Source of the DNA: Thermoplasmatota archaeon
GTDB lineage: Archaea > Thermoplasmatota > SW-10-69-26 > JACQPN01 > JAJPHT01
DNA length: 64,000 nt
Assembly: GCA_035540375.1 (NCBI GenBank)
Contig: DATLGO010000048.1
Span: 27,772-91,771 of the forward strand
Direction of reading: 5' to 3'
In this document: one piece after another, positions 12,255 to 60,465 of the stretch
How the letters are laid out: each line of letters begins with the position of its first letter
Position numbering within the stretch: the first letter of the stretch is position 1
The notes under the pieces: generated by a model
The model's database searches: none
Told to the model about the DNA's origin: nothing
Seen by the model: the letters and a program-made list of their open reading frames with translations, nothing else
Position numbers and translations under genes: made by a program

Positions 12255-12313
12255 GACGCCCCGATGAAGGGCCGGCGCGACAAAAGCGTTTCGCGCCGCG
12301 GCGAAAGCTCATC

Positions 12314-13039: not shown

Positions 13040-13043
13040 CGCT

Positions 13044-14675
13044 GTGCCGTCCACCGCGAGCCACGATCCCGAAGTCTCCCTGGCCCGCCGGCCCCAGGAC
13101 CTCGCCGGACGGGAGTTCGACCTCGTCGTCATCGGCGGCGGCATCAACGGCACGGGCGTCGCGCGCGACGCGGCCCGCCGCGGCCTCAAGGTGGCGCTTC
13201 TCGAGAAGGAGGACTTCGGCTACGGAACGACCGGCCGCTCCACGCGCCTCATCCACGGCGGCCTCAGGTACCTCGCGATGCTCGACTTCGGGCTCGTGCG
13301 GGAGTCGCTGCGCGAACGCGAGATGCTCCTCAGGAACGCGCCGCACCTCGTCGAGCCGCTCGCGTTTCTCGTTCCGCTCTACAAGGGCATCTCGCCGGGC
13401 AAGACGAAGCTCAAGGCGGGCCTCACGCTCTACGACGCGCTCTCCTACGACAAGCGGATGCCCGCGCACCGTTTCCTCTCGAAGGACGAGACGCTCGCCG
13501 AAGAGCCTTCGCTCAACCCCGAGGGGCTCGACGGCGCGCTCCTCTACTACGACGCGCAGGTGCCGCTCGTCGAGCGGCTGTGCCTCGAGAACGCTCTCGA
13601 CGCGGCCGCGCACGGCGCGGTCGTCGTGAACCACCTTCTTGTGCTCGACTTCGTGCGCGAGGGCACGTCGATCGCGGGCGTGCGCGTGAAGGACCGCCTC
13701 TCGGGCCGCGAGGACGTCGTGCGCGCGAAGACCGTCGTGAATGCGACGGGGCCGTGGCTGAACGTCCTCGACGTGCACGTGGAGGACAAGCGCCTGCGCA
13801 TGACGAAGGGCATCCACATCGTCGTGCCGCCCGTCGTGAGGCACGCGGTCGTGCTCTTTGCCGAGGACGGGCGCCTCTTCTTCGCCATCCCTTGGCTCGG
13901 GCGCACGCTCGTCGGCACGACCGACACGGACTACGCCGGCGACCTCGACAAGGTCGCGGCGACCCGCGAGGAGGTCGACTACCTCGTCGAAAGCGCGCGC
14001 CGCATCATTCCGGGCGCCGACGTCTCGGGCGTCCAGTTCACGTGGGCGGGCGTCCGCAGCCTTCTCAACGTGGAAGGGGTGAAGGAGGGCGCGGTGACGC
14101 GCAAGCATTTCGTGATCGACCACGCGAAGGAGGGCGTCCACGGCCTCTTCTCGATCGTCGGCGGCAAGATCACGCCGTACCGCGGCGTCGCCGAGGAGGT
14201 CGTCGACAAGGTCGCGAAGGCGCTCAAGGTGCGCGCCGCGTGCGACACCGGGAAAGCGCCCCTGCCCGGCGCGCTCGACCCGGACGGCCAGGCCGCGTGG
14301 GTCGCCGAGGCCGCGGCGAAGCGACCCGGGTTCCCGGTCGCCTCCCTCGAGCACCTCGCGAGGGTCTACGGGCGGCGCGCGGGCGCCGTGCTCGCCCTCG
14401 CCGACCAGGACCCGACGCTCTCGTCGACCGTGTGCGCGCATTCGCCGACCCTCAAGGCGGAGGCCGTCTTCGCGGCCCGCCACGAGGCGGCCCATACGCT
14501 TGCGGACGTGATCCTGCGCCGCACGCTCCTCGGCCACGCGCCCTGCGAAGGACGCCACGTCGCGCCCGACGTCGCCGCGCTCATCGCCCCCGTCCTCGGC
14601 TGGGACGACGCGCGCCTGTCCGAGGAGGTCGCCGCCTTCGAGGCGGCGGTCGACCTGCGCCACCTGCACGAGTGA
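13044..14675 (+). CDS. glpA: FAD-dependent glycerol-3-phosphate dehydrogenase (GlpA/GlpD family)
   Basis: FDLVVIGGGINGTGVARDAARRGLKVALLEKEDFGYGTTGRSTRLIHGGLRYL is the N-terminal FAD fold, with full-length similarity across the protein. A GTG start follows the upstream gene's stop; the long 11841..14675 track ORF is a frame read-through artefact. Confidence 0.85.
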   Translation: MPSTASHDPEVSLARRPQDLAGREFDLVVIGGGINGTGVARDAARRGLKVALLEKEDFGYGTTGRSTRLIHGGLRYLAMLDFGLVRESLREREMLLRNAPHLVEPLAFLVPLYKGISPGKTKLKAGLTLYDALSYDKRMPAHRFLSKDETLAEEPSLNPEGLDGALLYYDAQVPLVERLCLENALDAAAHGAVVVNHLLVLDFVREGTSIAGVRVKDRLSGREDVVRAKTVVNATGPWLNVLDVHVEDKRLRMTKGIHIVVPPVVRHAVVLFAEDGRLFFAIPWLGRTLVGTTDTDYAGDLDKVAATREEVDYLVESARRIIPGADVSGVQFTWAGVRSLLNVEGVKEGAVTRKHFVIDHAKEGVHGLFSIVGGKITPYRGVAEEVVDKVAKALKVRAACDTGKAPLPGALDPDGQAAWVAEAAAKRPGFPVASLEHLARVYGRRAGAVLALADQDPTLSSTVCAHSPTLKAEAVFAARHEAAHTLADVILRRTLLGHAPCEGRHVAPDVAALIAPVLGWDDARLSEEVAAFEAAVDLRHLHE

Positions 14676-19285: not shown

Positions 19286-19657
19286 TTGCGGCCGCCTCGT
19301 CGCTGGGCTTTTCTGGCCGTCCGCCTTCCCGCCTGCGTGAAGCGCGTCCTTGCCTACGTTCCCGACCTGCTCTTCCGATCGCGCGTGCGCGGCACGGCCT
19401 CGGCCGCGGGCGTCGAGGTCGTGTTCGCGTCGAACGGGCCGGACCTCGCCGCGAAGGCGGCCTCGGGCGGCTTCGACCTCGCGCTCGTGGACCTCCACGC
19501 GCCCGGCGCCCTCGCGCATCTGCCGCGCGGCGTGCGCGTCGTCGGCTTCCACAGCCACGTGGACGTCGCGACGCGACGCGCGGCCGAGGCTGCGGGCGCG
19601 GAAGCGTACACGAACTCCGCCTTCGTCGAGGCCCTGCCGAAGATCCTTCAGGCGTGA
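19286..19657 (+). CDS. stand-alone CheY-like receiver (REC) domain protein, atypical
   Basis: RVLAYVPDLL...GVEVVFASNGPDLAAKAASGGFDLALVDLHAPGALAHL...VRVVGFHSHVD...AGAEAYTNSAFVEALPKIL follows REC topology. The phospho-acceptor Asp context (LALVDL) is present, but the N-terminal acidic pair and the conserved Lys are degenerate. The likely start is GTG near 19340. Confidence 0.4.
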   Translation: MRPPRRWAFLAVRLPACVKRVLAYVPDLLFRSRVRGTASAAGVEVVFASNGPDLAAKAASGGFDLALVDLHAPGALAHLPRGVRVVGFHSHVDVATRRAAEAAGAEAYTNSAFVEALPKILQA

Positions 19658-19724
19658 GCGCGGAAACCCCGTTCGGGGGCCGTCAATCCTTTATGGGGCG
19701 GCGCGCTCAGGAGGAGCGGTCATC

Positions 19725-21167
19725 ATGCCCAAGGTCCGACTCCCCACGCCCCTTCGCCCGTACGCCGGCCACCAGGCCGTCGTCGAGGTCGAAGGCGCGA
19801 ACGTCGGCGAGGTCCTCCGCCGCCTCGTCGCGAAGCACGAAGGCCTGCGCGGGCACCTCTTCGACGAGCGTGGACGGCTGCGTCCGTTCGTGAACGTGTA
19901 CGTCAACCAGGAGGACGTGCGCACGCGCCAGAACGACGCGACCCCCGTCGCCGACGGGGACGTCGTCATGATCGTGCCCGCGGTCGCGGGCGGCGCAGTC
20001 CCCGCGAAGGGCGCGGGCGGCGTCGGGATCCTCGGCCGCGACGAGACGGCCTACTACGCGCGTCACCTCATCCTCCCCGAGGTCGGCCTCAAGGGACAGG
20101 AGAAGCTCAAGCGCGCGAAGGTGCTCCTCGTCGGCACGGGCGGCCTCGGCGCGCCGGCCGCGCTCTACCTCGCGGCCGCGGGCGTGGGCCGCATCGGCCT
20201 CGTCGACTTCGACCGCGTCGAGGCCTCGAACCTGCACCGGCAGGTGCTCTTCTCGGCCTCGGACGTCGGACGACCGAAGGCGGAGGCGGCGGCCGCGCGC
20301 CTGCGCTCGCTCAACCCCCACATCGAGGTGGACGTCCACGACACGACCTTCACGAGCGCGAACGCGCTCGACCTCCTCGCCGGCTACGACATCCTCGTGG
20401 ACGGCACGGACAATTTCCCGACGCGCTACCTCGCGAACGATGCCGCGGTCCTCTCGGGCAAGCCGAACGTCTACGCGAGCATCTTCCGCTTCGAAGGCCA
20501 GGCGTCCGTGTTCGCGACGCGAGACGGACCCTGCTACCGGTGCCTCTACCCCGCGCCGCCGCCGCCCGGCCTCGTGCCGAGCTGCGCCGAAGGCGGCGTC
20601 CTCGGTCTCCTCCCCGGCGTCATGGGCACGATCCAGGGCGTCGAGACCGTGAAGCAGATCCTCGGCATCGGCGAGTCGCTCGCGGGGCGCCTCCTGCTCT
20701 TCGACGCGCTCGGGATGGAATTCACGACGCTCTCGCTGCGCAAGAACCCCGACTGCCCCGCGTGCGGCGCGAAGCCCACGCTCACGGGCCTCATCGACTA
20801 CGAGGAATTCTGCGGCGTCCGCGCCCACGAGGACGCGATTCCCTCGGGCGTGCCCGCGATCGCGCCGCGCGACGTCCACGCGCGCCGCGAGGCGAAGGCC
20901 GACCTCACGCTCGTGGACGTCCGCGAGCCGCACGAATGGGAGATCGGGCGCATCGCGGGCGCGATGCACGTGCCGCTCGGCGAGGTCGTCGCCCGCGCTT
21001 CCGAGATCCCGCAGACGGGCGAGGTCGTGGTCTACTGCCGCTCGGGCGCGCGCAGCGCCCGCGCGACGGAGACGCTGCGGGGCCTCGGCTTCCGCAACGT
21101 CAAGAACCTCGAAGGCGGCATCCTCGCCTGGGCCCGCGACGTCGACCCCACCGTCGCGACGATCTGA
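19725..21167 (+). CDS. fused MoaD/ThiS-like Ubl (ending in GG) + MoeB/ThiF-type E1 adenylyltransferase + C-terminal rhodanese domain
   Basis: Residues 1-90 (MPKVRLPTPLRPYAGHQAVVEVEGANVGEVLRRL...VNVYVNQEDVRTRQNDATPVADGDVVMIVPAVAGG) are the MoaD/SAMP beta-grasp with a terminal Gly-Gly. They continue in frame into the E1 (KVLLVGTGGLGAPAALYLAAAGVGRIGLVDFDRVEASNLHRQ, CxxC...CxxC) and a rhodanese domain (VVVYCRSGARSA active-site Cys). A GGAGG RBS precedes the ATG. Confidence 0.85.
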   Translation: MPKVRLPTPLRPYAGHQAVVEVEGANVGEVLRRLVAKHEGLRGHLFDERGRLRPFVNVYVNQEDVRTRQNDATPVADGDVVMIVPAVAGGAVPAKGAGGVGILGRDETAYYARHLILPEVGLKGQEKLKRAKVLLVGTGGLGAPAALYLAAAGVGRIGLVDFDRVEASNLHRQVLFSASDVGRPKAEAAAARLRSLNPHIEVDVHDTTFTSANALDLLAGYDILVDGTDNFPTRYLANDAAVLSGKPNVYASIFRFEGQASVFATRDGPCYRCLYPAPPPPGLVPSCAEGGVLGLLPGVMGTIQGVETVKQILGIGESLAGRLLLFDALGMEFTTLSLRKNPDCPACGAKPTLTGLIDYEEFCGVRAHEDAIPSGVPAIAPRDVHARREAKADLTLVDVREPHEWEIGRIAGAMHVPLGEVVARASEIPQTGEVVVYCRSGARSARATETLRGLGFRNVKNLEGGILAWARDVDPTVATI

Positions 21168-27497: not shown

Positions 27498-29222
27498 TCA
27501 GAGGCTCCGGATCACGTCGCAGTCGAACACCGTGTCGACCACGATTCCGTCCGGACTGTTGTATTTCACGCCCACGATCTCGGTGCACGCGCGGACGCCG
27601 GATTCGAGGGTTCCGGTCGGGAACACGAGGTGGCGGGCCGACGTGTAGACCCCCACGGTGCCCTGCGACGGGCTCGCCGTGCTCGCGAGGTGGATCGTGA
27701 TGGGATCCGTCCCCGAATAGAGGATGCGACGGGGCTCGCCGACGCAGTTGTCCAGGGTGGGGTTCGCCTTGCACGCCGCGCCGAGAACCGCCGGCGGATC
27801 CACGAGGAGGACGCCGGGCGTGGGCCAGACGGTGAGCGGCGTGATCGTGAGGGTGAGGTTCGAGTTGTGGCCCCCTTGGGGCGTCGAGATGCCGATCGGG
27901 TTGAACTCGCCCGCGGAATCATCGTACTGATCGGGAAGCGGTCGGCTCCCGCCCTCGTAGGGGTCGGCGGCCGCGATGCCGATGAAGCCGTCGCCATTGT
28001 AGTCGCGCCAGATGCCCGTGCGCACCTCGAACGCGAGGATGCCGGGCGCGGACGCGCCGTCGGGGGTGCCGACGCGCTCCATGCTCGAAGCGCCGAGGCC
28101 GGTGCGGGGCAGGAGGTCGAGCCAGCCGCGGGCTTCGGCCGCGAACTCGGCGTGGCGGCCGGCGGCGCTGTTGCCGCTCCCGAGGTCCGTTTCGCGCTCG
28201 TAGCGGGGGAAGAGGGCTCCCATGGCGGGCCCGAGGGTCGCGCCGAGGGGCGTGTCGCCGAGCGGGACGGGTCCGGGCCGGCACCGATTGGGGCAAAGCC
28301 CGAGGCTCGGGCTGCTCACGGCGTTCGTGAACGGCGCCGCGACGGCCCCGTACAGGGCCGCGACGGGGCCGGGGGCCACCGCCGAGTACAGGTCCACGTC
28401 GACGAGCGTGGTGTCGCGCGGGATGAAGGGGAAGCGGGGATCCTCGCCGGGGAGGAGAATGATGTCGTTCGCGGTGACGACCGTGATCCGCTGGAGGAGC
28501 GACCCCTCCGTGAAGACCATCACGTCCTGGTTCGAGCCGGTGTCCCAGAAAGCGTTCTGTCCGATGAGCTTGTAGGTGAAGTCCGGCTGGGTCTCGCGCG
28601 GACGCGAGTAGGACGCCAGGTTGGGGTGGCTGCCGGGTTCCACGAAGCTCGCGAGGGCGGCGCCCACGACGCCGCTCGCGGTCGCGCTCTTGATGATGAC
28701 CCATTCGTTGCCGTCCCCGCCGGACCAGGGGGCCCCCACGGAGCGGGACGACGTCTGCGAGGATCGAATGACGTTGTCCTCGTTCGCGTCGTTCCACAAG
28801 CCGAACCAGGCGTGGAACTTCGCCGCGCCCGGCAGAATCGTGGGGGGAAGGCCCAGGCGGCGCGTGAGGCTGTCGCCGCGGTGCGCGTCCTTGTACGCCC
28901 CGTCCACCGACGTCGCCGTATTCGGGGGCCCGACGAGCGCGGGATCCGCGTAGCGCAGCGCCTCGAAGTAGCCGAAGCTCGCATGGTAGCTGTCCAGGAT
29001 GCGCACGCCGACCGGCGGGTGCGAAAGCTGGGTCGGGGTCAGAGGGCAGCTCTCGCTGCCACTCGTATGCACCGCCTTCACGCAGTTCGACTGTCCGAGG
29101 TCGGCTTCGAACGATGGAGGCTCGGCGAGCTCGACGGACACGTCCGTCGCAGCTTCGAGGCGGTAGGGGTCCTGCGCGAGGACCGACGGGACGACCAGGG
29201 ACAGGACGAGAAGCAGCGCCAT
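27498..29222 (-). CDS. secreted hypothetical protein (574 aa)
   Basis: Internal Met start with signal peptide MALLLVLSLVVPSVLAQ. The upstream part of the track ORF overlaps the divergent hydrolase gene and is rejected. Confidence 0.5.
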   Translation of the reverse strand: MALLLVLSLVVPSVLAQDPYRLEAATDVSVELAEPPSFEADLGQSNCVKAVHTSGSESCPLTPTQLSHPPVGVRILDSYHASFGYFEALRYADPALVGPPNTATSVDGAYKDAHRGDSLTRRLGLPPTILPGAAKFHAWFGLWNDANEDNVIRSSQTSSRSVGAPWSGGDGNEWVIIKSATASGVVGAALASFVEPGSHPNLASYSRPRETQPDFTYKLIGQNAFWDTGSNQDVMVFTEGSLLQRITVVTANDIILLPGEDPRFPFIPRDTTLVDVDLYSAVAPGPVAALYGAVAAPFTNAVSSPSLGLCPNRCRPGPVPLGDTPLGATLGPAMGALFPRYERETDLGSGNSAAGRHAEFAAEARGWLDLLPRTGLGASSMERVGTPDGASAPGILAFEVRTGIWRDYNGDGFIGIAAADPYEGGSRPLPDQYDDSAGEFNPIGISTPQGGHNSNLTLTITPLTVWPTPGVLLVDPPAVLGAACKANPTLDNCVGEPRRILYSGTDPITIHLASTASPSQGTVGVYTSARHLVFPTGTLESGVRACTEIVGVKYNSPDGIVVDTVFDCDVIRSL

Positions 29223-29346
29223 CGATGCGATACGCACAGGCAGGCCTCGGTCCCGAGGTCGGCCAACGGGAGATATAGATACCGGCCCCACGTCGGGGCG
29301 AGGTCGCCCACAATCTACTTCTACGCCCGAGCGGGATCGGCGCGGG

Positions 29347-31404
29347 ATGACCCGCGCCATCGTCCTCGCCCTTCTCCTCGCGCTTCCCGCCGCCCTCGCC
29401 GGGTGCTTCGCGCCCGCCGATGAGGACCTGCGCCCCGGAAGCGTCGACCTGCTCGAGGGACTCGTCGTCGAGGGCGCGAAGGCGACACGTCTCGAAAACG
29501 GCGACCTGAACCTCGTGTGGGAGGGCGTGATCGAGGGCAAGAGCGTCCCCGTCGTGTTCCCGGTCCCGGAGGGCGTCACGTACGTCGAGGCGACCGCGAC
29601 GGTTCCTGCCGGACGCTCGCTCGACCTGCGCGTCGTCGGCAACTCGACGGGGCGGCTCCTTTGCAACACCCACAAGACGGCGAGCTTCCTCGTCGACGCG
29701 AAGGGCCGCGTCTCGTGCTCGGGCCTCGGCGTCGCGTCGCCGGGCGAGGACTGGAAGGCGATGCTCGGCGCGTCGAATTCGCTCTCGGCGCCCGCACCGT
29801 TCGTGCTCTCGGTGAACCTCAGCACCGCGCCCCTCGACGGGTCCGCCGCGCTCATCCGCTGGGACCGGCTCTCGCGCCCGATCCACAAGGCGCTCGAGAC
29901 GGAGACGGTGAAGGTGCCCGCAAGCGTCGACGGGGCGAAGCTCCACGTCGAGGTCACGCGCCCCGCTATCGAGGAGAAGGTTCCGACCATCCTCGTGTCG
30001 AGCCCGTACAACTACAATGCGCGCGCGGCGGGCAACCGCCCGTCGGATTCGCTCATCCTCGCGATGGTGCCGCGCGGGTATGCCGTCGTCGTCGCGGACG
30101 TGCGCGGCTTCGGCAACTCGGAAGGGTGCGTCGAGGTATGGGGTCCGAAGGAGCAGAAGGACCAGTACGACCTCGTGGAGTGGGTCGCCGCGCAGCCGTG
30201 GAGCGACGGCAAGGTCGCGTTCTACGGGCAGAGCTACGTGGCGACGACCCCCGTCGAGGCGGCCGTCCAGCGCCCGCCCCACCTCACGACGATCGCGATC
30301 GTCGCGCCCGTCATGAACACGTGGGCCGACTGGCACTTCGGCGGCGTCCCGAACGGCGAAAACGTCGGGTCTCCGCGCAGCTACCAGCAGGGCGGCACGG
30401 AGACGACGCCCGAGGACGGGAACCCGCTCGCGACGGTCGCGCACACGGCGAACGGCTTCTGCGACGTCACGCTCGCGGCGCGCGCGAACGACCCGCGCGC
30501 GCTTTACGACGCGTTCTACAAGGAGCGCAACTTCACGGCGCGCGCGAAGGAGATCAACGTCCCCGTGTTCTACACGCAGGGCTTCTGGGACGAGAACGTG
30601 AAGGGCGAGATGATCGTCGGCTTCTTCGACGCGCTCGACGTCCCGAAGCGCGCCTTCTACGGCCCCTGGCACCACCAGCACGCGGTGCGCGCGGACATGG
30701 AGCTCACGCTGCGCGCCTGGTTCGACCACTGGCTCAAGGGCATCGAGACGGGCGTCATGGACGGACCCCTCGTCGAGGTCCGCACGCCGCAGGGCCTCGC
30801 GCGCGAGGCCGAATCGTGGCCGCCGGCCCACGCGACGCCGCGCGCGTTCCACCTCGCGTCCGGGAAGCTCCAGGACGCGTCCGGGGCGGGCGAATCCACG
30901 TATCTCGCCTTCCCCGCGAAGACGGTCCTCGCGAACCTCCTCCCGATGGCGCCGACGCCGACCGCGGTCCGCTTCGCGTCGGAGCCGCTCGCCGAGCCTC
31001 TCTACGTGTCGGGCAAGGGCGTGTTCCGCTTCAACGCGAAGCTCGCGGGCGCGGACAACTCCTACTTCGCGGCGTACCTCCGCGACGTCGCGCCCGACGG
31101 AACCTCGACGCTCCTCACGTTCGGGTGGCTGAACGCGGCCCATCGCTTCGGGCACGAGCGGTACGAGCCGGTGCCGCCGAACGCCCCCGTCGCGTACGCG
31201 CTTTCGCTCCTTCCCGCGGACCACGTCGTCCTCGCGGGCCACAAGCTCGTCCTCGAAGTCCGCTCGGCGGACCTCGCGGACTGGTCGCAGGCCGGCGGCG
31301 CGACGGAACCCGGTCTCGTGACGCTCGACCACGCGCGAAGCGCGCTCGAGCTGCCGACGCTCCCGCTCGAATCGCTCGCGCCCGCGCCGCGGTCGGCCGC
31401 GTGA
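29347..31404 (+). CDS. CocE/NonD-family alpha/beta hydrolase (X-Pro dipeptidyl-peptidase S15-like), lipoprotein-type signal
   Basis: MTRAIVLALLLALPAALAGC (lipobox-like). ...VADVRGFGNSEGCVEVWGPKEQKDQYDLVEWVAAQPWSDGKVAFYGQSYVATT matches the S15 family nucleophile region, with a C-terminal beta-sandwich. Confidence 0.8.
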   Translation: MTRAIVLALLLALPAALAGCFAPADEDLRPGSVDLLEGLVVEGAKATRLENGDLNLVWEGVIEGKSVPVVFPVPEGVTYVEATATVPAGRSLDLRVVGNSTGRLLCNTHKTASFLVDAKGRVSCSGLGVASPGEDWKAMLGASNSLSAPAPFVLSVNLSTAPLDGSAALIRWDRLSRPIHKALETETVKVPASVDGAKLHVEVTRPAIEEKVPTILVSSPYNYNARAAGNRPSDSLILAMVPRGYAVVVADVRGFGNSEGCVEVWGPKEQKDQYDLVEWVAAQPWSDGKVAFYGQSYVATTPVEAAVQRPPHLTTIAIVAPVMNTWADWHFGGVPNGENVGSPRSYQQGGTETTPEDGNPLATVAHTANGFCDVTLAARANDPRALYDAFYKERNFTARAKEINVPVFYTQGFWDENVKGEMIVGFFDALDVPKRAFYGPWHHQHAVRADMELTLRAWFDHWLKGIETGVMDGPLVEVRTPQGLAREAESWPPAHATPRAFHLASGKLQDASGAGESTYLAFPAKTVLANLLPMAPTPTAVRFASEPLAEPLYVSGKGVFRFNAKLAGADNSYFAAYLRDVAPDGTSTLLTFGWLNAAHRFGHERYEPVPPNAPVAYALSLLPADHVVLAGHKLVLEVRSADLADWSQAGGATEPGLVTLDHARSALELPTLPLESLAPAPRSAA

Positions 31405-48641: not shown

Positions 48642-49487
48642 GTGAATGACTTCCGCGCGGGACCCCTCAGCGTGGACAAGGCCTTCTACGCAGCGTTGAA
48701 GCTGCACGTCTACAATTCGATCAACGACTCGCTCCTGAACGCCCTCCTCGGGGGGCGCTCCATCACCATCACGGACGACGTGAAGCTCGAGATCGCCCGC
48801 TTCACGGCCCGCCGGATCAACCACATCTTCGTCTCCGAGAACGGGAACCGCCCGAACTCGTCCTGCGAGTTCTACGGCTTCACGAGCCACAAGGTCCGCG
48901 AGAAGCTCATGGACTTCGAGGAGCGCGGCATCATCGAGCTCACGGGCAAGGGCCTGCGGGACGCCTTCACGTACCGCTGGCGCGCGCCGATCAAGCACTG
49001 GGAGATCTGCTCGTACATGCGCTTCAGGCGCCTCACGGGCGACGACCTGACGCTGAATCTCGAGCTCACGCGGGTGTTCCAGAACGTGGGCCTCGAGACG
49101 TTCACCCTCCAGGATTTCATGGGCTTCTACCACGAGGCCCACGGCGAGGAATACGGCAACACGCGCTGGGGCAAGCGCAAGTTCGAGAGCCTCGTGAACT
49201 CCTACGCCTACCAGTCCTTCCTGAAAAGCCGCCTCGAGAAGCTCGTCTCCCGCAAGCTCGTCGTCGCGACCGAGAAGGACCAGTTCGCCCTCAATCCCGT
49301 CGCGCAGGACGCGGTGAACCATTTCGACCTCTTCGTGAACGAGGTCGCCTACCACCCGTCCCGCGAGATGTGCCGCGCGTGCCCCATGGACGCGCTCTGC
49401 CGCGCGGGCTCCACGCAGCTCGTCGTCATCACGCTGAACAAGAATCAGGACCCCCTTCCGACGCCGCCGACGCTGAAGATCGAGTAG
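48642..49487 (+). CDS. hypothetical protein (281 aa), possible winged-helix segment
   Basis: GTG start. The amino-acid composition (N, F, Y, K-rich) is atypical for this genome. SHKVREKLMDFEERGIIELTGKGLRDAFTYRW resembles a wHTH. C-terminal CRACPMDALC. Confidence 0.45.
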   Translation: MNDFRAGPLSVDKAFYAALKLHVYNSINDSLLNALLGGRSITITDDVKLEIARFTARRINHIFVSENGNRPNSSCEFYGFTSHKVREKLMDFEERGIIELTGKGLRDAFTYRWRAPIKHWEICSYMRFRRLTGDDLTLNLELTRVFQNVGLETFTLQDFMGFYHEAHGEEYGNTRWGKRKFESLVNSYAYQSFLKSRLEKLVSRKLVVATEKDQFALNPVAQDAVNHFDLFVNEVAYHPSREMCRACPMDALCRAGSTQLVVITLNKNQDPLPTPPTLKIE

Positions 49488-52667: not shown

Positions 52668-53890
52668 CTGCTGCCTTTGCCGTAGTTCCGGATCCTTGTC
52701 AGGAGATCCTTGAGGGTATCGTCATCGCTTGCGCCGTTTTCGCCGCGCACGACGCGACGCAACCGGTCGTCGGTCGCGAGGACCGCGAGCGTTTCGGGGG
52801 CGGGCGACTCCTCGCGCACGCCGTGGACGGCCCGCACGCGCTCGCGCGCGAGGCGCGTAATGCGCTCGATCGGGCTCGCCATGGGGGAGGTCCGGACGCG
52901 GGCGAGGCCGCTCCGGTGGTGCGTGAGCCGCTCCTCGGGTTTGACGAGGGCGAGGAGCACCGCGATCGCGAGGCCGAGGGAACCGAGGAAGATCCACTGC
53001 CAGAACGGGTCCTTCGTCGGCACGACGAGCGACGCGAGGCCCGCCGCGGCGAGCCGGGCCTGGGGCGCGGGCGCGTGACGCGATTCGTCGAAGAGGATGG
53101 TTCCGGCGTTCGACCCGCGGGCGAGCGCGTCGGGGAGGGCGAGGGCAAACTTGCGGTTGTCGCTCCCTGCGGCGTCGAGCATCTCGTTCGTGAAGAGGGC
53201 GGGGTCCGCGATGAACATGACGGTGCCGCGGCCGTGCGCGACGACGACCATCTGGGGGAAGGGACCCTTCGTGTCCGTGTCGTCCTTGCGGCGGTTCCCG
53301 TCGTTGTCGAGGTACGAGTCCGGCGAGCTCGTCGCGACGATCCGGGCCGAGGGGTTCGCGCCGGAAAGAAGGCTCGGGCTCACGGTGAGGGCCGTGGGCT
53401 CGTTGAGAAGGAGGTCGAAGGTCAGGTCCTCGCCCTTGCTCGTCGTGAGGAGCGCGCGGGCGCGGGCGAGCGAGACGTTCTTCTGGAAGTTGGAGTCGAG
53501 GAGCGGCACCTTGTCGAAGGTGACGCCGAACTTGACGGCGAGCGTGTTCGCGAAGCCGAAGTCGTCCGCGACCACGAGGACGCCGCCGCGCGTCACGAAG
53601 TCGTCGAACGCCTCGATCTCGGAGGCCGAGTACGGCCGGCTCACGCCGACCGCGAACACGATGTGGGCCGCGGGATCGGAGACGCCGCGCAGCACGAGCG
53701 GCGTCGAGGCGATGGTGTCCGTGTTGTACCCGAGGCCCCCCGCGAGGCTCGCGCGGTACGCGCCGAGATCCGCGCGGCCCGAGCTGTAGGATCCGAGCTC
53801 CGGGGGCGGGGAATAGAGGATCGCGACGACGGCGCCCCCGACAATGAGGGCGGCAAGGAGGACGGCCGCGAGGCCGAGCGCGCGCTTCAC
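52664..53890 (-). CDS. DUF4350-like protein (N-terminal and C-terminal TM helices flanking a large extracytoplasmic domain)
   Basis: The GTG start (VKRALGLAAVLLAALIVGG) overlaps the stop of the giant upstream gene (GTGA). C-terminal TM FWQWIFLGSLGLAIAVLLALV. The stop overlaps the MoxR start (GTGA). The 5' 2.4 kb of the track ORF 52664..56311 overlaps the giant gene out of frame and is rejected. Confidence 0.6.
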   Translation of the reverse strand: MKRALGLAAVLLAALIVGGAVVAILYSPPPELGSYSSGRADLGAYRASLAGGLGYNTDTIASTPLVLRGVSDPAAHIVFAVGVSRPYSASEIEAFDDFVTRGGVLVVADDFGFANTLAVKFGVTFDKVPLLDSNFQKNVSLARARALLTTSKGEDLTFDLLLNEPTALTVSPSLLSGANPSARIVATSSPDSYLDNDGNRRKDDTDTKGPFPQMVVVAHGRGTVMFIADPALFTNEMLDAAGSDNRKFALALPDALARGSNAGTILFDESRHAPAPQARLAAAGLASLVVPTKDPFWQWIFLGSLGLAIAVLLALVKPEERLTHHRSGLARVRTSPMASPIERITRLARERVRAVHGVREESPAPETLAVLATDDRLRRVVRGENGASDDDTLKDLLTRIRNYGKGSR

Positions 53891-56800
53891 GCGCCCGCCT
53901 CCTTCGCGCCGCCCTTCGTGCGCCGGATGCGCGCGAGGTCGGCGTTGAGCGCGGCGAGCGCGCTCAGGGCGCGGTCGCGCTCGGCGGGCCCGACGCCGTG
54001 GGCGGAGTACCGCGCCTCCTCGAAGAGCGAGACGAGCGCGTCGAGCGGCGCCGCGCGCACCGGGAGAGCCGCCTTGACGGCGGCGCCGAACTCCTGCGCC
54101 GTGACGTCCGGCGTCGTCGTGTACCCGAATTTCACGAGGTAGTCGCGCAGGCGCCGGTAGGCCATGAGAATGGTGGCCGAGTACTCGTCGCCCGCGACGA
54201 GCGCGGCCTGCGTGTCGAGGAGGATGCGCTCGGCCTCGGTGACGCGGCTCTTCCTGTACCAGGCGACGAGGAGGCTCACGATGGCCGCGACCGCGAGAGC
54301 GCCGATGAGCGCGAGGACCCACGAGTTGCCGGCGCCGCCGAAGGCGCCCGTGGAGATCTGGATGCGGGTCGCCTCGTTCGTGGGCAGCAGGTCGTCGGTC
54401 CCGCCGAAGCGCACGTCGAGGTCCGAGGCGCCCGCTCCGGTGACCTTCCCCGGGAAGGAGGCGTGGCCGGTCGCGTTCGTCTTCAGCGTGAACGGGTAGT
54501 ACGAGCCGCTGAAGTGGACGCGGAGCACGGCGTTCGGGACGCCGAGCCCCTCGTCGTCGAGGAGCTGGACGGTGCCCGTGAAGCTGTCGCCCACCGCGAG
54601 CTTGCGGGGGACCACGACCTCGAGCCGGGTCATGCTGATGACCTCGACGAGCGCGATCGCCGAGGCGGGCGTGTGGCTCTGGTCGCCCGCGTAACGGACC
54701 TCGATCGGGACCCGGGCGCGCTCGAAGTCGGCCGGGATGAGGGCCGCGACGTGGAAGCTCCCGTTCGGGGCCGTGCTCGCGCGCGCGAGGAAGGAGCCGT
54801 TGAAGATGAGCTCCACGGAGGCGCCGGGGACGCCGAGGCCGTTCTCCTGCTTGAGGCGGCCGTCGAACTCGAAGACCTGGCCGCGCACGGCGCGCGGGGG
54901 CGGGTGGATCTCGAGCACGGTGCGCGAGAGCAGGCGCAGCGACCCGGTCGCCCCCGAGGGCGCGTAGAGCGTGGAGCCCTCGTAGCGCGCCTCGATCGGG
55001 TAGACCTTCGCGGCGACCCCGGAGGTGTCGAAGCCGGCCTCGGCCTCGCCGCGGAAGTCGGTCGGAGTGACCGTCACGGGCGATCCGAGGAAGGTGACGC
55101 CGACGATCTCGCCGCCGATGGGCCGGCCGGCGTCGTCGTGGAGCGTGAAGTTGTACACGACCTCGCCGATCGCGGCGGTGAGGTGGGGCATGCGAATCGA
55201 GGTCGCGCTCAGGACGCGCACCGTCGAGACGAGCTCCGGCGCCCCGCGCAGGAGGCCGTCCGCGCTCCCGTCGTAGCGGGCGCGCGCGAGGACGGGGCCG
55301 AGGCTCGCGTTCGCGGGGAGCGTGAGGGGCGCGCGGAATCCTCCGGTCGCGTTCGTCACGAAGACGCCGAGATGGCGCTCGCCGAGCGTCACGTTCACGC
55401 TTTCGCCGCGGACGGGCCGCTCGTAGGCGTCGACGACGACCCCGACGAGCGCCTGCGGAACGCCGCGCACGAGGGCCTTCGTCTCGAGGCTCACGCGCGT
55501 CGCGGACGTCGCCGGAACGCGGATCGAGGTCGAGGCGGGCCCGTAGAAGTCGGATCCCGCGAATCCGAGCGCGAACGTCACGCTCCCGACCTTGGGATAG
55601 ACGTTCCTCGGGATGGTGAGCGAGAAGGTTCCCGTCGCGTTGTCCACGCGCGCCTGGGTCGCGTAACCCTCCGTCGAGATGCGGATGACGAGCGCGTCGC
55701 GCGAGGTGGGGTCGCGCGCGGGGCCGCCGCCCACGTCCCGGAGGGTCCCCTGGATGACCGCGTCCTTCGCGATGTCGAGCGCCGTGACGCGGATGAGGTC
55801 GGCCCCGAGGGGCTGGAGGATCTGCGCCTCGAGGACGGGCCGGGCCCGGATGGTGACGAAGCTGAGCTTCTGCGAGGAGGCCTGGTAGAGGTCGGATCCC
55901 TCGAAGACGAGGGAAACGGGCTGGTTGCCAGGACTCGAGTCCTCGGGGATGAGGATCTTGAAGGACGCGACACCCTGCGCGTTTGTAACCGCCGTGTGGA
56001 GCGCTCCGAGGAAATGGAGACCGACGGTCTCGTTGCCGACGACCGCCCCCCGGAAGTTCCTGAGGGTCGCCTCGGCGACGAGATCGCCTCCCGCAACCGC
56101 GATGAGACGATCGTTCAGCACGCGGCCGGAGATCTTCGTGGGGAACGCGATCGCGACGCGGGCCTTCCCCGTCGAGGCGCCGTAGAGCTCCGATGGCGTG
56201 GTCTCGAGCGGGAGGTCGAAGTAGCCCGGCTCCTGGGCGGCGCCGGTCGGGAAGCTGATGTTGAACCGCCCCTCCGCGTCCGTGGTCGCGCTCTTGCGGA
56301 CGCCGTTCCACGTCATGAGCACCGGCCTCCGCGGCGCGGGGTCACCCGACCCGTCGAGGAGGCGCGCGGTGCCCCCGATCTCGCCGTTCGGCGTCGTGCG
56401 GAGCGTGGGTCCGGCGTCGAACGTGGTCGGCGTGCGCAGGCGGAGCGTCTGTGTTGCCACCACGGGCGTCTCGAACGTGCCGCGGATGCCCCGGGCCCGG
56501 TAGACGGTGGAGCCCGCGCCGTCGACGACGTCGGCGGCGGTCCACTCCGCGTGGGCGCCGATGCCGTAGCTCCAGAGAAGGACGCGGTAGCTCGTGATCG
56601 CTGGATCGAGCGCGACGGAGGCCGTGTCGAGGGTCCAGCTCACCGTGGATCCCGGAGCGTGGACCTTGCCGAAGAGCACCACCGGGCCGCAGCTCGAGGG
56701 AATGGTGACGGATTGCGCGCGCACGAGCGAAAGCGTGAGCGAGAAGCGGCCGGCGGCGTCCGTGAACGCCACGCCCGCGACGCGGGACGGGTCGCTGCGG

Positions 56801-59800
56801 GCCCTCAGGTTGTCCTTCGAGGCGTCGTTCCAGGCGAGGTTCGCGAGGATGGGGACGCAGGCGCGGTTGACCCAGTTGCGCGTCGAGGCCGCCGGGGCGA
56901 GCGTCCCGTCGACCGCAAGCGAGCCCCCCTTGAGCAGGATGTCGTCCTGACCGGAGTGGTGCGTCACGACGAGGTCCTGGATCACGACGTCCGCAAGCGC
57001 TTCCCAGATCGGGCACGTGTCGCCGGGAAGTCGGGTCGAGGCCACGCTGAGGCGGCCTTCGCGCATCACCCAGGCGTTCCGGAAGGCGGGGTCCGCGGGG
57101 TCCGCCTCGCCCGTGTTCATCTGGTCGTAGAACGGGTGCGGATCCTCGCCGACGAAGTCGTTCAGCCCGTCCTTGTCGTAGTCGAAGTTGTTGCCGAGGA
57201 TCTTGCCCGTGATCGGGTCGATGAAGCCGTCCTTGAAGGGCGGTCCCGCCTTGCACGAGCGCGTCGCGATGTTCGTGTCCGTGCGGTTGCCCGCGGCGCC
57301 GAACCACCAGGTGCCGGTCCACGACGGCGGGCGGCCGATGTCGTACCGCTGGCCTTCGGACAGGTCGCCGAAGCGCGAGACCGTGCGGGTGTCCTGGAGC
57401 GGGTCGTACCCGTAGAGCTGCTCCCACCCGTCGGGGATCCCGTCGTCGTCCGAATCCTCGTCCGTGGGGGAGGTTCCGACGGCGCACGTTCCCCCGTCGG
57501 GGCATCGCTCGCCGTAGAAGATGTATCCGCCCGGAATGCGCGTGTGCACGATGCCCGCGGCGATGAGCGCTTCGACGTGCTCCGCAAGGTCCGGCTTCGA
57601 GAGCGTCGCTTCGCACGTCGCGGGGAGGGCGCCGCCCGCAAGCTGCGCCTGCCAGTTCGGGCCGTCGAGGAGGCCGTCGCCGTCGGTGTCGAAGGCGACG
57701 ACGCTCGTCGGGGGATTGAGCGCGAGCTCGTCGGCGGCGCTGAGGCCGTCGCAGTCCGCGTCGGAGGCGCCGAGGTCGTCGAGCGGGTTCAGCGGATTGG
57801 ATCCCGCGAGCTTCCCTTCCTCGGTGACCTCCTTGCCGTCGCCGAGGCCGCCGAAGTCGCTGTCGGGATTGAGGGGATCGGTCGGGCCCGGCATGCCGGG
57901 CTCGAAGGAGACCTTCCACTCGTTGACGTTCGAAAGCCCGTCGCCGTCGCAGTCCGATTTCCCGCCGAGGGGGTTGCGCGGCTCGAAGAGGCTCACGCAG
58001 GAGACGTAGGCGGGGCTCGCCGAGGCGAGCCGGCGCGTGCGCGCCTCCCACCAGTCCGGCATCCCGTCGCCGTCGGTGTCCGGCACGAGCGGGTCCGTGC
58101 GGTTCTCGTACATCTCGCGCCAGGTCCAGCGGAACGGGCCCTGGATGATGTAGACCGTGAATTCCTCGGCGCGGCCCTGGGCCTTCACGCGGTGGTACCC
58201 GTTCGTCGGGGCGAGGAGGGTCTCCGAGGGCGCAAGCGTCGCGGGCGTGCCCTCGGGGACGCCGAGGGTGCGCACGTACGTGGTCTCGAACCCGGTGGCG
58301 TTCACGTCGCCGGGCTTGAGCGGGTCCATGCAGCCGCACGGCGACGCGACGCCGGGGGCGTGCGAGCCGACGCGGGAGAAGTAGTATTCCCACCCGTCGG
58401 GAACGCCGTCGCCGTCCGAGTCCGCGCGGTGGGGATCGGTCTTGAGCGCGTACTCGTCGAGGTTCGTGAACGCGAACTGGAACGGGAACAGGGTGCCGAC
58501 GCGGTGGTCCACGCCGTCGCCGTCGAGGTCGCGCGTCGTGTCGGAGAGCCCGTCCTTGAGGCACGACCCGAGGCTGTCGACCCGCGTCGGATCGAGGTCC
58601 CACGCGAAGCACGCGTGGACGTACCAGGCGTGGCGGATCTCCCAGCCGTCGTCGAGCGAGTCCCCGTCCGTGTCGAAGAGGGCGGGATCGGAGGCGGGGA
58701 AGGGGTACGCGTCGAGCGCCCCCGGGGCCGCGAGGCGGCGCTCGGGCTTGAGCTCGGCCCCGTCGTTCACGCCGTCGCCGTCGGCATCCGCGTTCACGAC
58801 GTTCGGGGCGTCCTGCCAGCGGCCGCAGCCTTCGCCGAGGCGTCCCTGGGGCAGGAGCGCCTCGCGGGCCTGCTGGAGCGACCACGTCTCGCCCTTGCAG
58901 CGGCGGTGCTGGTCGATGATGCGGTTCAGCTCCTCGGGCGTCGCCTGCTGGGAGCGGGTCGTCCAGTACTCGACCTCGGCGCCGTCGAGGATCCCGTCGC
59001 GATCCGTGTCGGACTCGACGGGGCTGAGCGGCGGGGACACGGCGAAGGCGACCTCGTCGAGATCGTCGATGCCGTCGAGGTCCGTGTCGGGCGTGAGGGG
59101 ATCGAGCGCGCACGGGACGCCCGCCTTGGCGGCCGTGTCGTAGCAGAAGTCGACGCGGCGGCCCGCGATGACCGAGAAACCCTGACGCTTCTCGAAGTCG
59201 GTGAAACCCGAGTTGGCGCTGTCCGCGCGGGCGGGATTGCTCCACACGTGCGTCGTGCGACCGTCGACCGTGACCGACCAACCGAGGACGACCTCCTCGA
59301 AGTCGTTGAGGCCGTCGCCGTCCGTGTCGCGCCGCCGCGGATCGGCGCCCGAGAGCGCCTCCTCGAGGTTCGTGAGGCCGTCGCCGTCGGGGTCCGTGAG
59401 CGGCCCCACGACGAAGGCGGGAAGCGAGGCGCGCGAGAGCCACGCGGGGAGCGAGATGTGGGTGAGGAGCGCCGCGCGCACGCCGCCGCCGTCCGCCGCC
59501 GAGAGCGGGTCGAGCCCGTGCGCGACCTCCCACGCGTCCGACATGCCGTCGCCGTCGGAGTCCGCCCGCGTCGGGGAAAGCCCGCGCGCGAAGAGGGGCG
59601 CGAGCTCGTCGCCCGAGAGGTTCGCGTAATTGAAGCGGGCCGCGGTCCAGCGGAACTTCTCGAGCACCGTCATGCCGGTCCCGTCGAGGCTCCGGTAGGC
59701 GAGGCCCGGGTCGAGGGCGTCGAGCTTCCAGTGGAGGAGCCAGCCGTCCGCGATGCCCGCGCCGCTCGTCGAGTATCGCGTCGCGTTCGTGCGCGTCTCC

Positions 59801-60465
59801 GTCATCTCCTTGAGATCCTCGAGACCGTCGCCGTCGGAGTCGAGGCGCGAAGGATCGAGGCCGAGCGCGAAGTTCTCGAGGTTCGTGAGACCCTTGCCCG
59901 AGCAGTCCCGCGTCGCATCGGGAACGAGCGGGTCCGGGCACGCGGTCCCGTTGTCGGGGCCGCGCTTCGCGTAACGGGCCTCCCAGGCGTCCGGGAGCCC
60001 GTCGCGGTCCGTGTCCGCGTGGTTCGGGTCCGTTCCGTGCCGCTCCTCGTCGCGGTTCGAGAGGCCGTCGCGATCGCAGTCGCCGTCCGCGTCGGGAACC
60101 ACGGGGTCGGGACAGTACGTTCCGGAGACGAAGTCGTAGCTTCGCTTCAGCGCCTCCCACGCGTCGGGAAGGCCGTCGCCGTCCGTGTCCGCGGAGTCGC
60201 GCGCCGTGCCGTAGGAGAACGTCTCGTCGAGGTCGGAGAGCCCGTCGCCGTCCGTGTCGATGAAGGCGAGATTGCCGTCCGGCGTCGCGGTCGCGAACTC
60301 GATCTGTCCCGTGCCCGCGGTCTGCGTGAGGCTCGGAAGGACGGCGGCGCCGACGAGGAGGTTCGCGAGGAGGACGAGCGCGAGGACCGCGGGAGCCACC
60401 TTCGCCTTCTGCGCCCAGGCCCACCGCGCCATGCGGGTCGCGGCTTCGCTTCCCGGAAGCGTCAC
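53887..60465 (-). CDS. giant (2192 aa) surface protein with a TSP3-like repeat region, a beta-sandwich domain array, a TM helix and a DUF4129-like cytoplasmic tail
   Basis: N-terminal signal/anchor (VAPAVLALVLLANLLVGAAVL). About 19 D-x-D-x-D-G-x-x-D-x-x-E repeats (for example DTDGDGLSDLDE, DSDGDGMSDAWE, DTDGDGMPDWWE). Repeated roughly 100-aa beta-sandwich modules. TM helix NSWVLALIGALAVAAIVSLLVAWY. C-terminal tail with ...TPDVTAQEF...LFEEARYSAHG... resembling DUF4129. Confidence 0.8.
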   Translation of the reverse strand: MTLPGSEAATRMARWAWAQKAKVAPAVLALVLLANLLVGAAVLPSLTQTAGTGQIEFATATPDGNLAFIDTDGDGLSDLDETFSYGTARDSADTDGDGLPDAWEALKRSYDFVSGTYCPDPVVPDADGDCDRDGLSNRDEERHGTDPNHADTDRDGLPDAWEARYAKRGPDNGTACPDPLVPDATRDCSGKGLTNLENFALGLDPSRLDSDGDGLEDLKEMTETRTNATRYSTSGAGIADGWLLHWKLDALDPGLAYRSLDGTGMTVLEKFRWTAARFNYANLSGDELAPLFARGLSPTRADSDGDGMSDAWEVAHGLDPLSAADGGGVRAALLTHISLPAWLSRASLPAFVVGPLTDPDGDGLTNLEEALSGADPRRRDTDGDGLNDFEEVVLGWSVTVDGRTTHVWSNPARADSANSGFTDFEKRQGFSVIAGRRVDFCYDTAAKAGVPCALDPLTPDTDLDGIDDLDEVAFAVSPPLSPVESDTDRDGILDGAEVEYWTTRSQQATPEELNRIIDQHRRCKGETWSLQQAREALLPQGRLGEGCGRWQDAPNVVNADADGDGVNDGAELKPERRLAAPGALDAYPFPASDPALFDTDGDSLDDGWEIRHAWYVHACFAWDLDPTRVDSLGSCLKDGLSDTTRDLDGDGVDHRVGTLFPFQFAFTNLDEYALKTDPHRADSDGDGVPDGWEYYFSRVGSHAPGVASPCGCMDPLKPGDVNATGFETTYVRTLGVPEGTPATLAPSETLLAPTNGYHRVKAQGRAEEFTVYIIQGPFRWTWREMYENRTDPLVPDTDGDGMPDWWEARTRRLASASPAYVSCVSLFEPRNPLGGKSDCDGDGLSNVNEWKVSFEPGMPGPTDPLNPDSDFGGLGDGKEVTEEGKLAGSNPLNPLDDLGASDADCDGLSAADELALNPPTSVVAFDTDGDGLLDGPNWQAQLAGGALPATCEATLSKPDLAEHVEALIAAGIVHTRIPGGYIFYGERCPDGGTCAVGTSPTDEDSDDDGIPDGWEQLYGYDPLQDTRTVSRFGDLSEGQRYDIGRPPSWTGTWWFGAAGNRTDTNIATRSCKAGPPFKDGFIDPITGKILGNNFDYDKDGLNDFVGEDPHPFYDQMNTGEADPADPAFRNAWVMREGRLSVASTRLPGDTCPIWEALADVVIQDLVVTHHSGQDDILLKGGSLAVDGTLAPAASTRNWVNRACVPILANLAWNDASKDNLRARSDPSRVAGVAFTDAAGRFSLTLSLVRAQSVTIPSSCGPVVLFGKVHAPGSTVSWTLDTASVALDPAITSYRVLLWSYGIGAHAEWTAADVVDGAGSTVYRARGIRGTFETPVVATQTLRLRTPTTFDAGPTLRTTPNGEIGGTARLLDGSGDPAPRRPVLMTWNGVRKSATTDAEGRFNISFPTGAAQEPGYFDLPLETTPSELYGASTGKARVAIAFPTKISGRVLNDRLIAVAGGDLVAEATLRNFRGAVVGNETVGLHFLGALHTAVTNAQGVASFKILIPEDSSPGNQPVSLVFEGSDLYQASSQKLSFVTIRARPVLEAQILQPLGADLIRVTALDIAKDAVIQGTLRDVGGGPARDPTSRDALVIRISTEGYATQARVDNATGTFSLTIPRNVYPKVGSVTFALGFAGSDFYGPASTSIRVPATSATRVSLETKALVRGVPQALVGVVVDAYERPVRGESVNVTLGERHLGVFVTNATGGFRAPLTLPANASLGPVLARARYDGSADGLLRGAPELVSTVRVLSATSIRMPHLTAAIGEVVYNFTLHDDAGRPIGGEIVGVTFLGSPVTVTPTDFRGEAEAGFDTSGVAAKVYPIEARYEGSTLYAPSGATGSLRLLSRTVLEIHPPPRAVRGQVFEFDGRLKQENGLGVPGASVELIFNGSFLARASTAPNGSFHVAALIPADFERARVPIEVRYAGDQSHTPASAIALVEVISMTRLEVVVPRKLAVGDSFTGTVQLLDDEGLGVPNAVLRVHFSGSYYPFTLKTNATGHASFPGKVTGAGASDLDVRFGGTDDLLPTNEATRIQISTGAFGGAGNSWVLALIGALAVAAIVSLLVAWYRKSRVTEAERILLDTQAALVAGDEYSATILMAYRRLRDYLVKFGYTTTPDVTAQEFGAAVKAALPVRAAPLDALVSLFEEARYSAHGVGPAERDRALSALAALNADLARIRRTKGGAKEAGA

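Follow-up and report, generated by a model that had tools for sequence, protein, structure and literature searches.

How is a giant archaeal surface protein connected to the MoxR-type ATPase encoded beside it? The question is raised by a 2192-amino acid (aa) protein of a Thermoplasmatota archaeon, encoded in a 64,000-nucleotide stretch of DNA (NCBI GenBank assembly GCA_035540375.1, contig DATLGO010000048.1, positions 27,772 to 91,771 of the forward strand) that we analyzed as a whole and refer to as the window. A preliminary description of this DNA had proposed that the giant carries, behind a single C-terminal transmembrane (TM) helix, a cytoplasmic tail resembling the domain DUF4129, and that this graft links the cell surface physically to the MoxR ATPase. 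We confirmed that the segment is a true DUF4129 domain in extended form, a helical bundle of ~110 residues into which the single C-terminal TM helix runs without a break. At slightly better than even odds (~0.55), we interpret the tail as a docking module in the cytoplasm, through which the giant is tied to DUF58 and MoxR in a conserved Thermoplasmatota surface operon.

The giant gene proved to be as first drawn, an open reading frame (ORF) of 2192 aa on the minus strand at 53887-60465 with a GTG start. An identical protein is listed at NCBI (HVL48010.1) under the label 'DUF4129 domain-containing protein [Candidatus Thermoplasmatota archaeon]'. GC content at the three codon positions (0.69/0.52/0.94) was as in other real genes of the window, which is ~70% GC. 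Nucleotides 53887-54310 encode the TM helix and the tail behind it (122 residues, aa 2071-2192), and include the stop codon.

We searched the last 150 residues against Pfam with hmmscan and observed a DUF4129 match (PF13559) far beyond chance (E 6.4e-11; score 42.6 bits, gathering cut-off 24.8). The match covers positions 1-68 of the 69-position profile at aa 2102-2170, which is only the C-terminal two thirds of the tail domain. In an alignment of 52 tails, the conserved domain is ~110 residues long, longer than the Pfam model, and adds an N-terminal helix with the pattern L-x-A-G-[ND]-E-Y. The motif on which the preliminary description had based its assignment (T-x-x-E-F ... L-F-E-E-A-R-Y-S) is the family consensus, and the giant reads TAQEF and LFEEARYSAH at these sites. 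Y2103, T2122, E2125, E2149, A2151, R2152, Y2153 and S2154 are conserved in at least 90% of the aligned tails, and EEARYSxH forms a near-invariant polar patch. The assignment to DUF4129 thus follows from a match above the gathering score over the full model together with the consensus motifs.

An AlphaFold2 (AF2) model of window positions 53890-54339, built from the 52-sequence alignment, was predicted to be all-helical with high confidence (mean predicted local distance difference test score 94, predicted template modeling score 0.82). In the model, a long helix (residues 6-48 of the modeled tail) holds the TM segment and continues into the cytoplasm, followed by four more helices. Structurally nearest to the modeled tail are protein-protein interaction bundles, among them FAT domains, the Vps28 C-terminus, GIT1 and HPt. 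HEPN-domain proteins (7ae2, 1ylm, 5yep, 2hsb, 8xdj and Csx28) also recur among the best structural neighbors, none at statistical significance. The highly conserved R2152 is followed, after three intervening residues, by H2156 in most aligned tails as judged by eye, and both lie just before the last helix.

A cytoplasmic location of the tail, also part of the preliminary description, is supported as a prediction. The hydropathy scan showed an N-terminal helix with four Lys/Arg before it and none after it, and a C-terminal helix with none before it and four after it (WYRKSR). All N-x-S/T sequons (16/16) and all cysteines (22/22) fall within aa 118-1997, and the net charge is −117 for the ectodomain and +3 for the tail. 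Sequence past the tail in homologues is Lys/Glu/Pro-rich and of low complexity, with long disordered extensions in many of them. The Lys/Arg bias at the TM helices, the placement of sequons and cysteines, the charge asymmetry and the Lys/Glu/Pro-rich extensions together suggest that the tail faces the cytoplasm. The domain therefore sits where DUF4129 is expected, at the extreme C-terminus directly behind a TM helix and on the predicted cytoplasmic side. Neither of the two outcomes named in the preliminary description as speaking against it, a missing DUF4129 match and a tail predicted to be extracellular, was observed. The C-terminal extensions of five homologues (P0138, P0080, P0054, P0017 and P0012) consist of low-complexity sequence or extra TM segments; we observed no recognizable partner domain after the tail in these five.

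We next describe the operon, which reads, in order, a NEW3/CARDB surface protein, the giant, a DUF4350 protein, MoxR, DUF58 and a ~5-TM protein. The stop codon of the upstream surface gene overlaps the GTG start of the giant (GTGA), and the GTG start of the DUF4350 gene overlaps the TGA stop of the giant in the same way (GTGA) and is preceded, at a distance of 8 nt, by a GGAGG ribosome-binding site. The overlaps at both junctions and the GGAGG site show that the giant gene is translationally coupled to the DUF4350/MoxR/DUF58 module. The MoxR (AAA_3) and DUF58 neighbors typical of DUF4129 genes are present in the window operon and in the syntenic loci described below. The ATPase belongs to MoxR proper (MRP), as it combines AAA_3 with AAA_lid_2 and is encoded beside a DUF58/vWA gene. 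Past the last gene follow a convergent gene and then housekeeping genes (DNA ligase, PAC2), and we therefore place the operon end at 49713. The 224-aa membrane protein encoded last had no match in Pfam or NCBIfam; its syntenic counterparts (L001, L023, L025) measure 198-266 aa.

The DUF58 protein is predicted to have an N-in/C-in hairpin, which would place its vWA-like body in one compartment with MoxR and the tail. In an alignment of eight archaeal DUF58 proteins (window, L001, L023, L025, L028, L010, L017, L022), the D-x-S-x-S motif of the metal ion-dependent adhesion site (MIDAS) of the vWA-like domain is replaced by D-x-R (FDNREIA in the window protein; E-L-R in L022). Since the canonical motif is missing, classical vWA-type metal-dependent ligand binding by DUF58 seems unlikely in this clade.

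The tail family was recovered by an exhaustive HMMER search with the 150-residue tail, which returned 627 cluster representatives at E <= 1e-3; we analyzed the best 149 (50%-identity clusters). Word-indexed protein searches were nearly blind to the family (1 and 56 mostly small matches), and the giants surfaced with HMMER. Among these best 149 of 627 clusters, 63 have at least 1000 aa with the same C-terminal tail, and 23 have at least 2000 aa. The layout of N-terminal TM helix, large ectodomain, TM helix and DUF4129 was observed in the same number (63/149), and the tail ends at most 60 residues from the C-terminus in 136. Seventeen clusters (2041-2300 aa) are full-length homologues of the window giant, with the N-terminal helix, both ectodomain halves, the TM helix and the tail; in a class of 1000-1430 aa, the ectodomain is mostly without detectable similarity to that of the giant. 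The idea of a singular graft had to be given up in view of this recurrent layout, the full-length homologues and the DUF4129 label that NCBI already attaches to the exact protein.

Gene order is conserved as well. We observed the same order in three independent relatives: L001 has a giant (as a C-terminal gene fragment), DUF4350, MoxR, DUF58 and a small membrane protein; L023/L024 and L025/L026 have a ~4000-aa CARDB giant, a ~1300-1400-aa NEW3/CARDB protein, a ~2200-aa DUF4129 giant, DUF4350, MoxR, DUF58 and a small membrane protein. Equivalents of the upstream gene of the window operon (1321-1428 aa) precede the giant in L023 and L025. The extra CARDB giant, of 3924-4065 aa, starts both of the longer operons (1-5708 in L023/L024, 1-5985 in L025/L026). 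The full cluster thus encodes ~7500 surface-protein residues before the MoxR module; the equivalent of the first giant probably lies past position 64000, the edge of the window.

Beyond the giants, ~300-aa DUF4129 genes (L010, L012-L022) occur in other Thermoplasmata, Methanomassiliicoccales, Bathyarchaeia and two actinobacterial metagenome-assembled genomes. DUF58, MoxR or both adjoin the gene in all 12 of these non-Poseidoniales loci; just one of the two is seen in only two loci, where the contig ends within the locus. None of the 12 loci showed DUF4350.

The description of the giant as a surface protein was borne out by the ectodomain. The distal half contains 19 D-x-D-x-D-G calcium-binding motifs that match the Pfam thrombospondin type 3 (TSP3) repeat family, bacterial type, and the membrane-proximal half is an array of Ig-like domains (Big_1, MG4, Big_3_5 and CarboxypepD_reg in Pfam), in which at least six repeats end in [YF]-x-G-[SDT]. 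The TSP3-rich half also gave sub-threshold NCBIfam matches to the Myxococcus gliding-motility adhesin CglD (99 bits, cut-off 400) and to the cell-cohesion protein MtsD (62.5 bits, cut-off 800); these reflect shared TSP3 repeats, not orthology.

A transglutaminase core (PF01841) is absent from the window giant and from the whole 2040-2300 aa class (Pfam at E <= 1; hhalign). We rejected a cryptic core in the window giant: a transglutaminase profile from eight domains of sister giants, compared by hhalign with a profile of the giant's class, gave a probability of 0.1. The region aa 1010-1350 reads as TSP3-like segments passing into Ig-like domains and leaves no room for an unknown globular domain. 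The polytopic TgpA_N/DUF3488 domain likewise had no Pfam match in the window giant, whose N-terminus is a single helix. Four sister giants (P0067, P0060, P0021 and P0121) keep the core with both Cys and His. It lies at aa 421-552 in P0067 (2653 aa), which also has a weak TgpA_N match, as does P0021 next to its Transglut_core match. Where present, the core sits in the ectodomain beside the TSP3 repeats.

In its background on DUF4129, the preliminary description merged TgpA-type proteins, which combine a polytopic N-terminus, a transglutaminase core and DUF4129, with stand-alone ~300-aa DUF4129 membrane proteins. The stand-alone proteins share with the giant the TM helix plus DUF4129 C-terminus (29-52% domain identity) and the MoxR/DUF58 neighborhood; they differ in a small, mostly polytopic N-terminal part, and usually have a small membrane protein where DUF4350 would be. 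In TgpA, as in the giant, a C-terminal DUF4129 segment presumably comes directly behind the last TM helix, and if so, it would be cytoplasmic. The transglutaminase domain of TgpA is periplasmic, and the protein is essential in Pseudomonas (PMC3507681). The giant thus resembles TgpA in having a large outward-facing domain ahead of the last TM helix, and its operon resembles TgpA-type operons (P. aeruginosa PA2873) in that a MoxR (AAA_3) ATPase and DUF58 accompany it. Unlike TgpA-type proteins, it has no transglutaminase core, a single N-terminal helix in place of polytopic TgpA_N, and an ectodomain that is built of TSP3 and Ig-like repeats and measures ~2000 aa instead of ~365 aa; its operon also has a DUF4350 gene and further giant surface proteins, and its host is an archaeon. 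Since related giants with a transglutaminase core exist (P0067, P0060, P0021, Poseidoniales), the window giant is better understood as the DUF4129 subunit of the operon with an ectodomain that is expanded and lacks transglutaminase than as an adhesin onto which a tail was grafted.

A second known system is the DUF4350 (arCOG01314)/MoxR/vWA module. With accompanying Ig-like surface proteins, it has been predicted to form a complex for secretion or membrane remodeling (Makarova, Galperin and Koonin 2015, PMC5898192). Its core is found in the window, where Pfam DUF4350, AAA_3 and DUF58 are encoded by consecutive overlapping or adjacent genes. Further likenesses are a DUF4350 protein with an N-terminal signal/TM segment and a C-terminal TM helix, a MoxR/GvpN-family ATPase and an Ig-like plus vWA (DUF58) protein; the Ig-like surface proteins and the 224-aa, ~5-TM membrane protein of the same neighborhood are candidate members of the arCOGs listed for the system. 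The published description differs in three respects: it mentions neither DUF4129 nor proteins several thousand residues long; it records no arCOG01314 in the Thermoplasmata available at the time, whereas the window operon is from a Thermoplasmatota archaeon; and it assumes a secreted vWA protein, whereas the hairpin of the window DUF58 predicts a cytoplasmic body (PMC5898192).

Together, these comparisons suggest how the system may work. We read the 2192-aa protein as the DUF4129 subunit of a conserved Thermoplasmatota operon of giant surface proteins, DUF4350, MoxR, DUF58 and a ~5-TM protein. Its ectodomain lacks a transglutaminase core and is expanded to an Ig-like stalk topped by a calcium-binding TSP3 array. 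Its tail would offer a docking surface that links the giant to the membrane-anchored, vWA-like DUF58 and, via DUF58, to the MoxR hexamer, as gene order suggests. ATP-driven remodeling inside could in this way be coupled to how the giant surface proteins outside are assembled, positioned or maintained. Such coupling would fit the secretion or membrane-remodeling role predicted for the DUF4350/MoxR/vWA module (PMC5898192). The physical link between the giant and MoxR, which the preliminary description had stated outright, is one that we infer from conserved gene order only.

A docking role is supported by the translational coupling, the conserved gene order, the predicted position of the DUF58 body in one compartment with the tail and MoxR, and sequence conservation. 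Across the 17 full-length homologues, the tail is conserved best, with a median identity of 42%, whereas the TSP3 half reaches 32% and the Ig half 26%; the comparison is somewhat biased by the fact that the homologues were gathered by tail search. Other observations weigh against docking, and contact of the tail with DUF58 or MoxR is putative. The P0067 locus reads giant, DUF4350, DUF58 and has no MoxR despite the other two module genes. Finally, the giants of Poseidoniales (Marine Group II), of ~2950-2990 aa, keep a recognizable tail, yet in the loci analyzed, 10 kb to each side of the gene contained no MoxR, DUF58 or DUF4350. Either the Poseidoniales tail can do without a neighboring module, or the module genes lie at another place in those genomes.

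We weighed four other explanations. The first is outside-in sensing, in which the giant would be a surface sensor filament and binding or mechanical load at the ectodomain would be passed through the TM helix and the DUF4129 bundle to DUF58/MoxR and on to a cellular response. The precedent is Esr, in which EsrA, built of 14 Ig-like domains, is secreted as a filament and the transglutaminase EsrD retains it on the surface, alongside MoxR, vWA and kinase/FHA components; the pathway was shown experimentally to sense epibionts (oral Actinomycetota; bioRxiv 10.64898/2026.09.08.750141). Sensing was also proposed for the Bifidobacterium PFNA cluster, with the order fn3, MoxR, DUF58, tgm (PMC8430577). 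Like Esr and PFNA, the window encodes a large surface protein of Ig/FN3-type repeats with MoxR and vWA/DUF58; the known systems also have a transglutaminase membrane protein and keep filament and membrane anchor as separate polypeptides, whereas the window giant fuses the two. An Ig-like stalk with a distal TSP3 array, a TM helix and tail modeled as one continuous rigid helix, and an ectodomain that diverges faster than the tail, as a sensor should, would all suit a receptor.

We nevertheless consider sensing unlikely. In contrast to Esr and PFNA, the window giant has no transglutaminase, and a search of the window operon with its flanks and of the syntenic loci showed no Ser/Thr kinase, phosphatase, FHA protein or β-propeller head, nor any effector gene. 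With two or three giants per operon, the system looks more like a structural assembly than a receptor. Neither the tail nor any of the four operon proteins encoded downstream matched a defense system in PADLOC, which counts against sensing; an anti-phage defense reading of the operon was dropped on the same result.

The tail could instead act independently of MoxR, as an oligomerizing or clustering anchor or as a cytoplasmic or cytoskeletal attachment, with adjacency reflecting mere co-expression of surface-biogenesis genes. The Poseidoniales giants argue for such a self-contained module. Like the window giant, they have an N-terminal helix, TSP3 repeats, an Ig-like array, a TM helix and a tail (tails 30-37% identical), and are preceded by a NEW3-like protein (~405-963 aa), with which they form a two-gene unit; they differ in a Transglut_core domain and in a tail that scores 22.5 bits, below the Pfam cut-off. 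The interaction-bundle folds nearest to the modeled tail and the long disordered extensions behind the domain in many homologues would also suit an independent anchor. Against this, outside Poseidoniales DUF58 and/or MoxR adjoin DUF4129 at each locus whose flanks are long enough (Thermoplasmata, Methanomassiliicoccales, Bathyarchaeia, Acidimicrobiia and Solirubrobacterales), and the stop/start overlaps bind the giant to the module. We therefore regard independence from MoxR as quite improbable.

The transglutaminase-like region of the Poseidoniales giant at L008:1448-10417 (aa ~937-1057) keeps its Cys (ATCSEYS) and has Ala for the catalytic His (SAYWGEV) and Asn for Asp (GWVPFNP); P0092 shows the same. 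Judging from these substitutions, the core of Marine Group II giants is probably a non-catalytic binding module.

A membrane-proximal degradation or quality-control system, the model proposed by Zhang and Aravind for MoxR/vWA/transglutaminase-like operons (PMC3495828), would have MoxR unfold vWA-recruited substrates and a transglutaminase-like peptidase cleave them, with the giant as peptidase-bearing subunit or substrate. The intact Cys and His of the four sister giants agree with it. The window giant and its class have no such core, and the cores that exist lie in the ectodomain, across the membrane from MoxR, a position incompatible with the geometry of a cytoplasmic peptidase (cf. PMC3507681); we consider the model very improbable here. 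A divergent HEPN-like domain, acting as a membrane-tethered RNase or nucleotide-binding effector under the giant, is the least probable and was set aside as a weak lead: R2152 and H2156 do lie just before the last helix, but with R-x3-H instead of the defining R-x4-6-H spacing, a profile search of PDB sequences returned no HEPN protein even at E <= 10, and the domain presumably also occurs in TgpA, whose essentiality in Pseudomonas (PMC3507681) points to a housekeeping context.

Docking of the tail to the DUF58/MoxR module can be extended to a bolder model, which we put forward tentatively and hold to be doubtful. The DUF4129 bundle may be the transmembrane coupler of an archaeal machine in which a MoxR ring and a non-MIDAS DUF58 act on the cytoplasmic ends of surface filaments of several thousand residues, either outward (ATP-driven assembly, tensioning or release) or inward (binding or mechanical load, as in Esr). 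If so, the fusion of filament, optional transglutaminase and DUF4129 anchor would be a Rosetta-stone link, and the bacterial filament and TgpA-like proteins would form one functional unit.

The giant-plus-DUF4129 layout is a recurrent, undescribed variant in a large family of uncultured Thermoplasmatota, neither a one-off nor a new category. The architecture had already been caught by automatic annotation and by itself reveals no new mechanism. MoxR/DUF58 operons with a DUF4129-bearing membrane protein are among the most widespread uncharacterized operons of bacteria and archaea. In a full-text literature search, DUF4129 was named in just two papers, in neither of which the domain is studied. 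The natural fusion of a DUF4129 anchor to a giant surface filament argues that the module serves surface-protein biology as one functional unit, and yields a concrete candidate interaction, that of the tail with DUF58/MoxR. The system predicted in 2015 would gain a defined membrane-spanning subunit, in Thermoplasmatota, where it had gone unrecorded, and the giant proteins of the abundant marine Poseidoniales are linked to the same domain family.

Table 1. Features of the giant gene and its operon (window coordinates; topology as predicted)
Feature	Position	Strand	Evidence and remarks
Giant gene, 2192 aa + stop	53887..60465	minus	GTG start; identical to HVL48010.1; full-length homologues; third-position GC (GC3) 0.94
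N-terminal hydrophobic helix (aa 25-43), signal peptide or N-in signal anchor	60337..60393	minus	Hydropathy 2.47; Lys/Arg 4 before, 0 after
Distal ectodomain half (~aa 58-1110), TSP3 repeats	57136..60294	minus	Pfam TSP3_bac E 1.9e-18, 7 stretches; motif list
Membrane-proximal ectodomain half (~aa 1190-2035), Ig-like array	54361..56898	minus	Pfam; repeat motif positions
C-terminal TM helix (~aa 2047-2070, NSWVLALIGALAVAAIVSLLVAWY)	54256..54327	minus	Hydropathy 2.86; Lys/Arg 0 before, 4 after
Cytoplasmic tail (aa 2071-2192), extended DUF4129 helical bundle of ~110 residues	53890..54255	minus	Pfam, 52-tail alignment, AF2
Pfam DUF4129 (PF13559) match, aa 2102-2170	53956..54162	minus	Near-invariant T-x-x-E-F and E-E-A-R-Y-S-x-H inside
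Upstream surface protein, at least 1178 aa	60462..64000	minus	NEW3/NPCBM_assoc and CARDB Ig-like domains (Pfam), C-terminal TM helix, short RRRVAP tail; frame open to window end, 5' part cut off there
DUF4350 protein, 408 aa	52664..53890	minus	Pfam E 1.3e-16; TM helix, ~270-aa GldG-like ectodomain, second TM helix, ~90-aa cytoplasmic tail; tail conservation
MoxR-family AAA+ ATPase, 339 aa	51648..52667	minus	AAA_3 E 6.4e-65, AAA_lid_2 E 4.2e-22; 79% identity to L001 orthologue
DUF58 protein, 418 aa	50384..51640	minus	Pfam E 7.4e-14; N-terminal two-helix hairpin, cytoplasmic Ig-like and vWA-like body
Polytopic membrane protein, 224 aa	49713..50387	minus	~5 hydrophobic segments; last operon gene; overlaps DUF58 stop

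In the window as a whole, tRNA and Rfam scans found nothing. The ORF convergent on the operon end (48642-49487, plus strand, 281 aa) has a clearly coding GC3 of 0.96 with unusually low values at the first and second codon positions (0.57/0.38) and no Pfam or NCBIfam match. An 837-aa ORF at 27498-30011 (minus strand) has coding-like GC3 and no Pfam match. At 11841-14675 (plus strand), a 944-aa protein combines a ~420-residue N-terminal region that matches no family with a glycerol-3-phosphate-oxidase-like DAO/DAO_C part (aa 427-925). The 605-aa protein encoded at 19350-21167 (plus strand) joins ThiS (aa 129-215), a ThiF/E1-like domain (aa 236-471) and rhodanese (aa 508-596); by its domain order, it is a predicted fusion of a ubiquitin-like sulfur carrier to its own activating enzyme.

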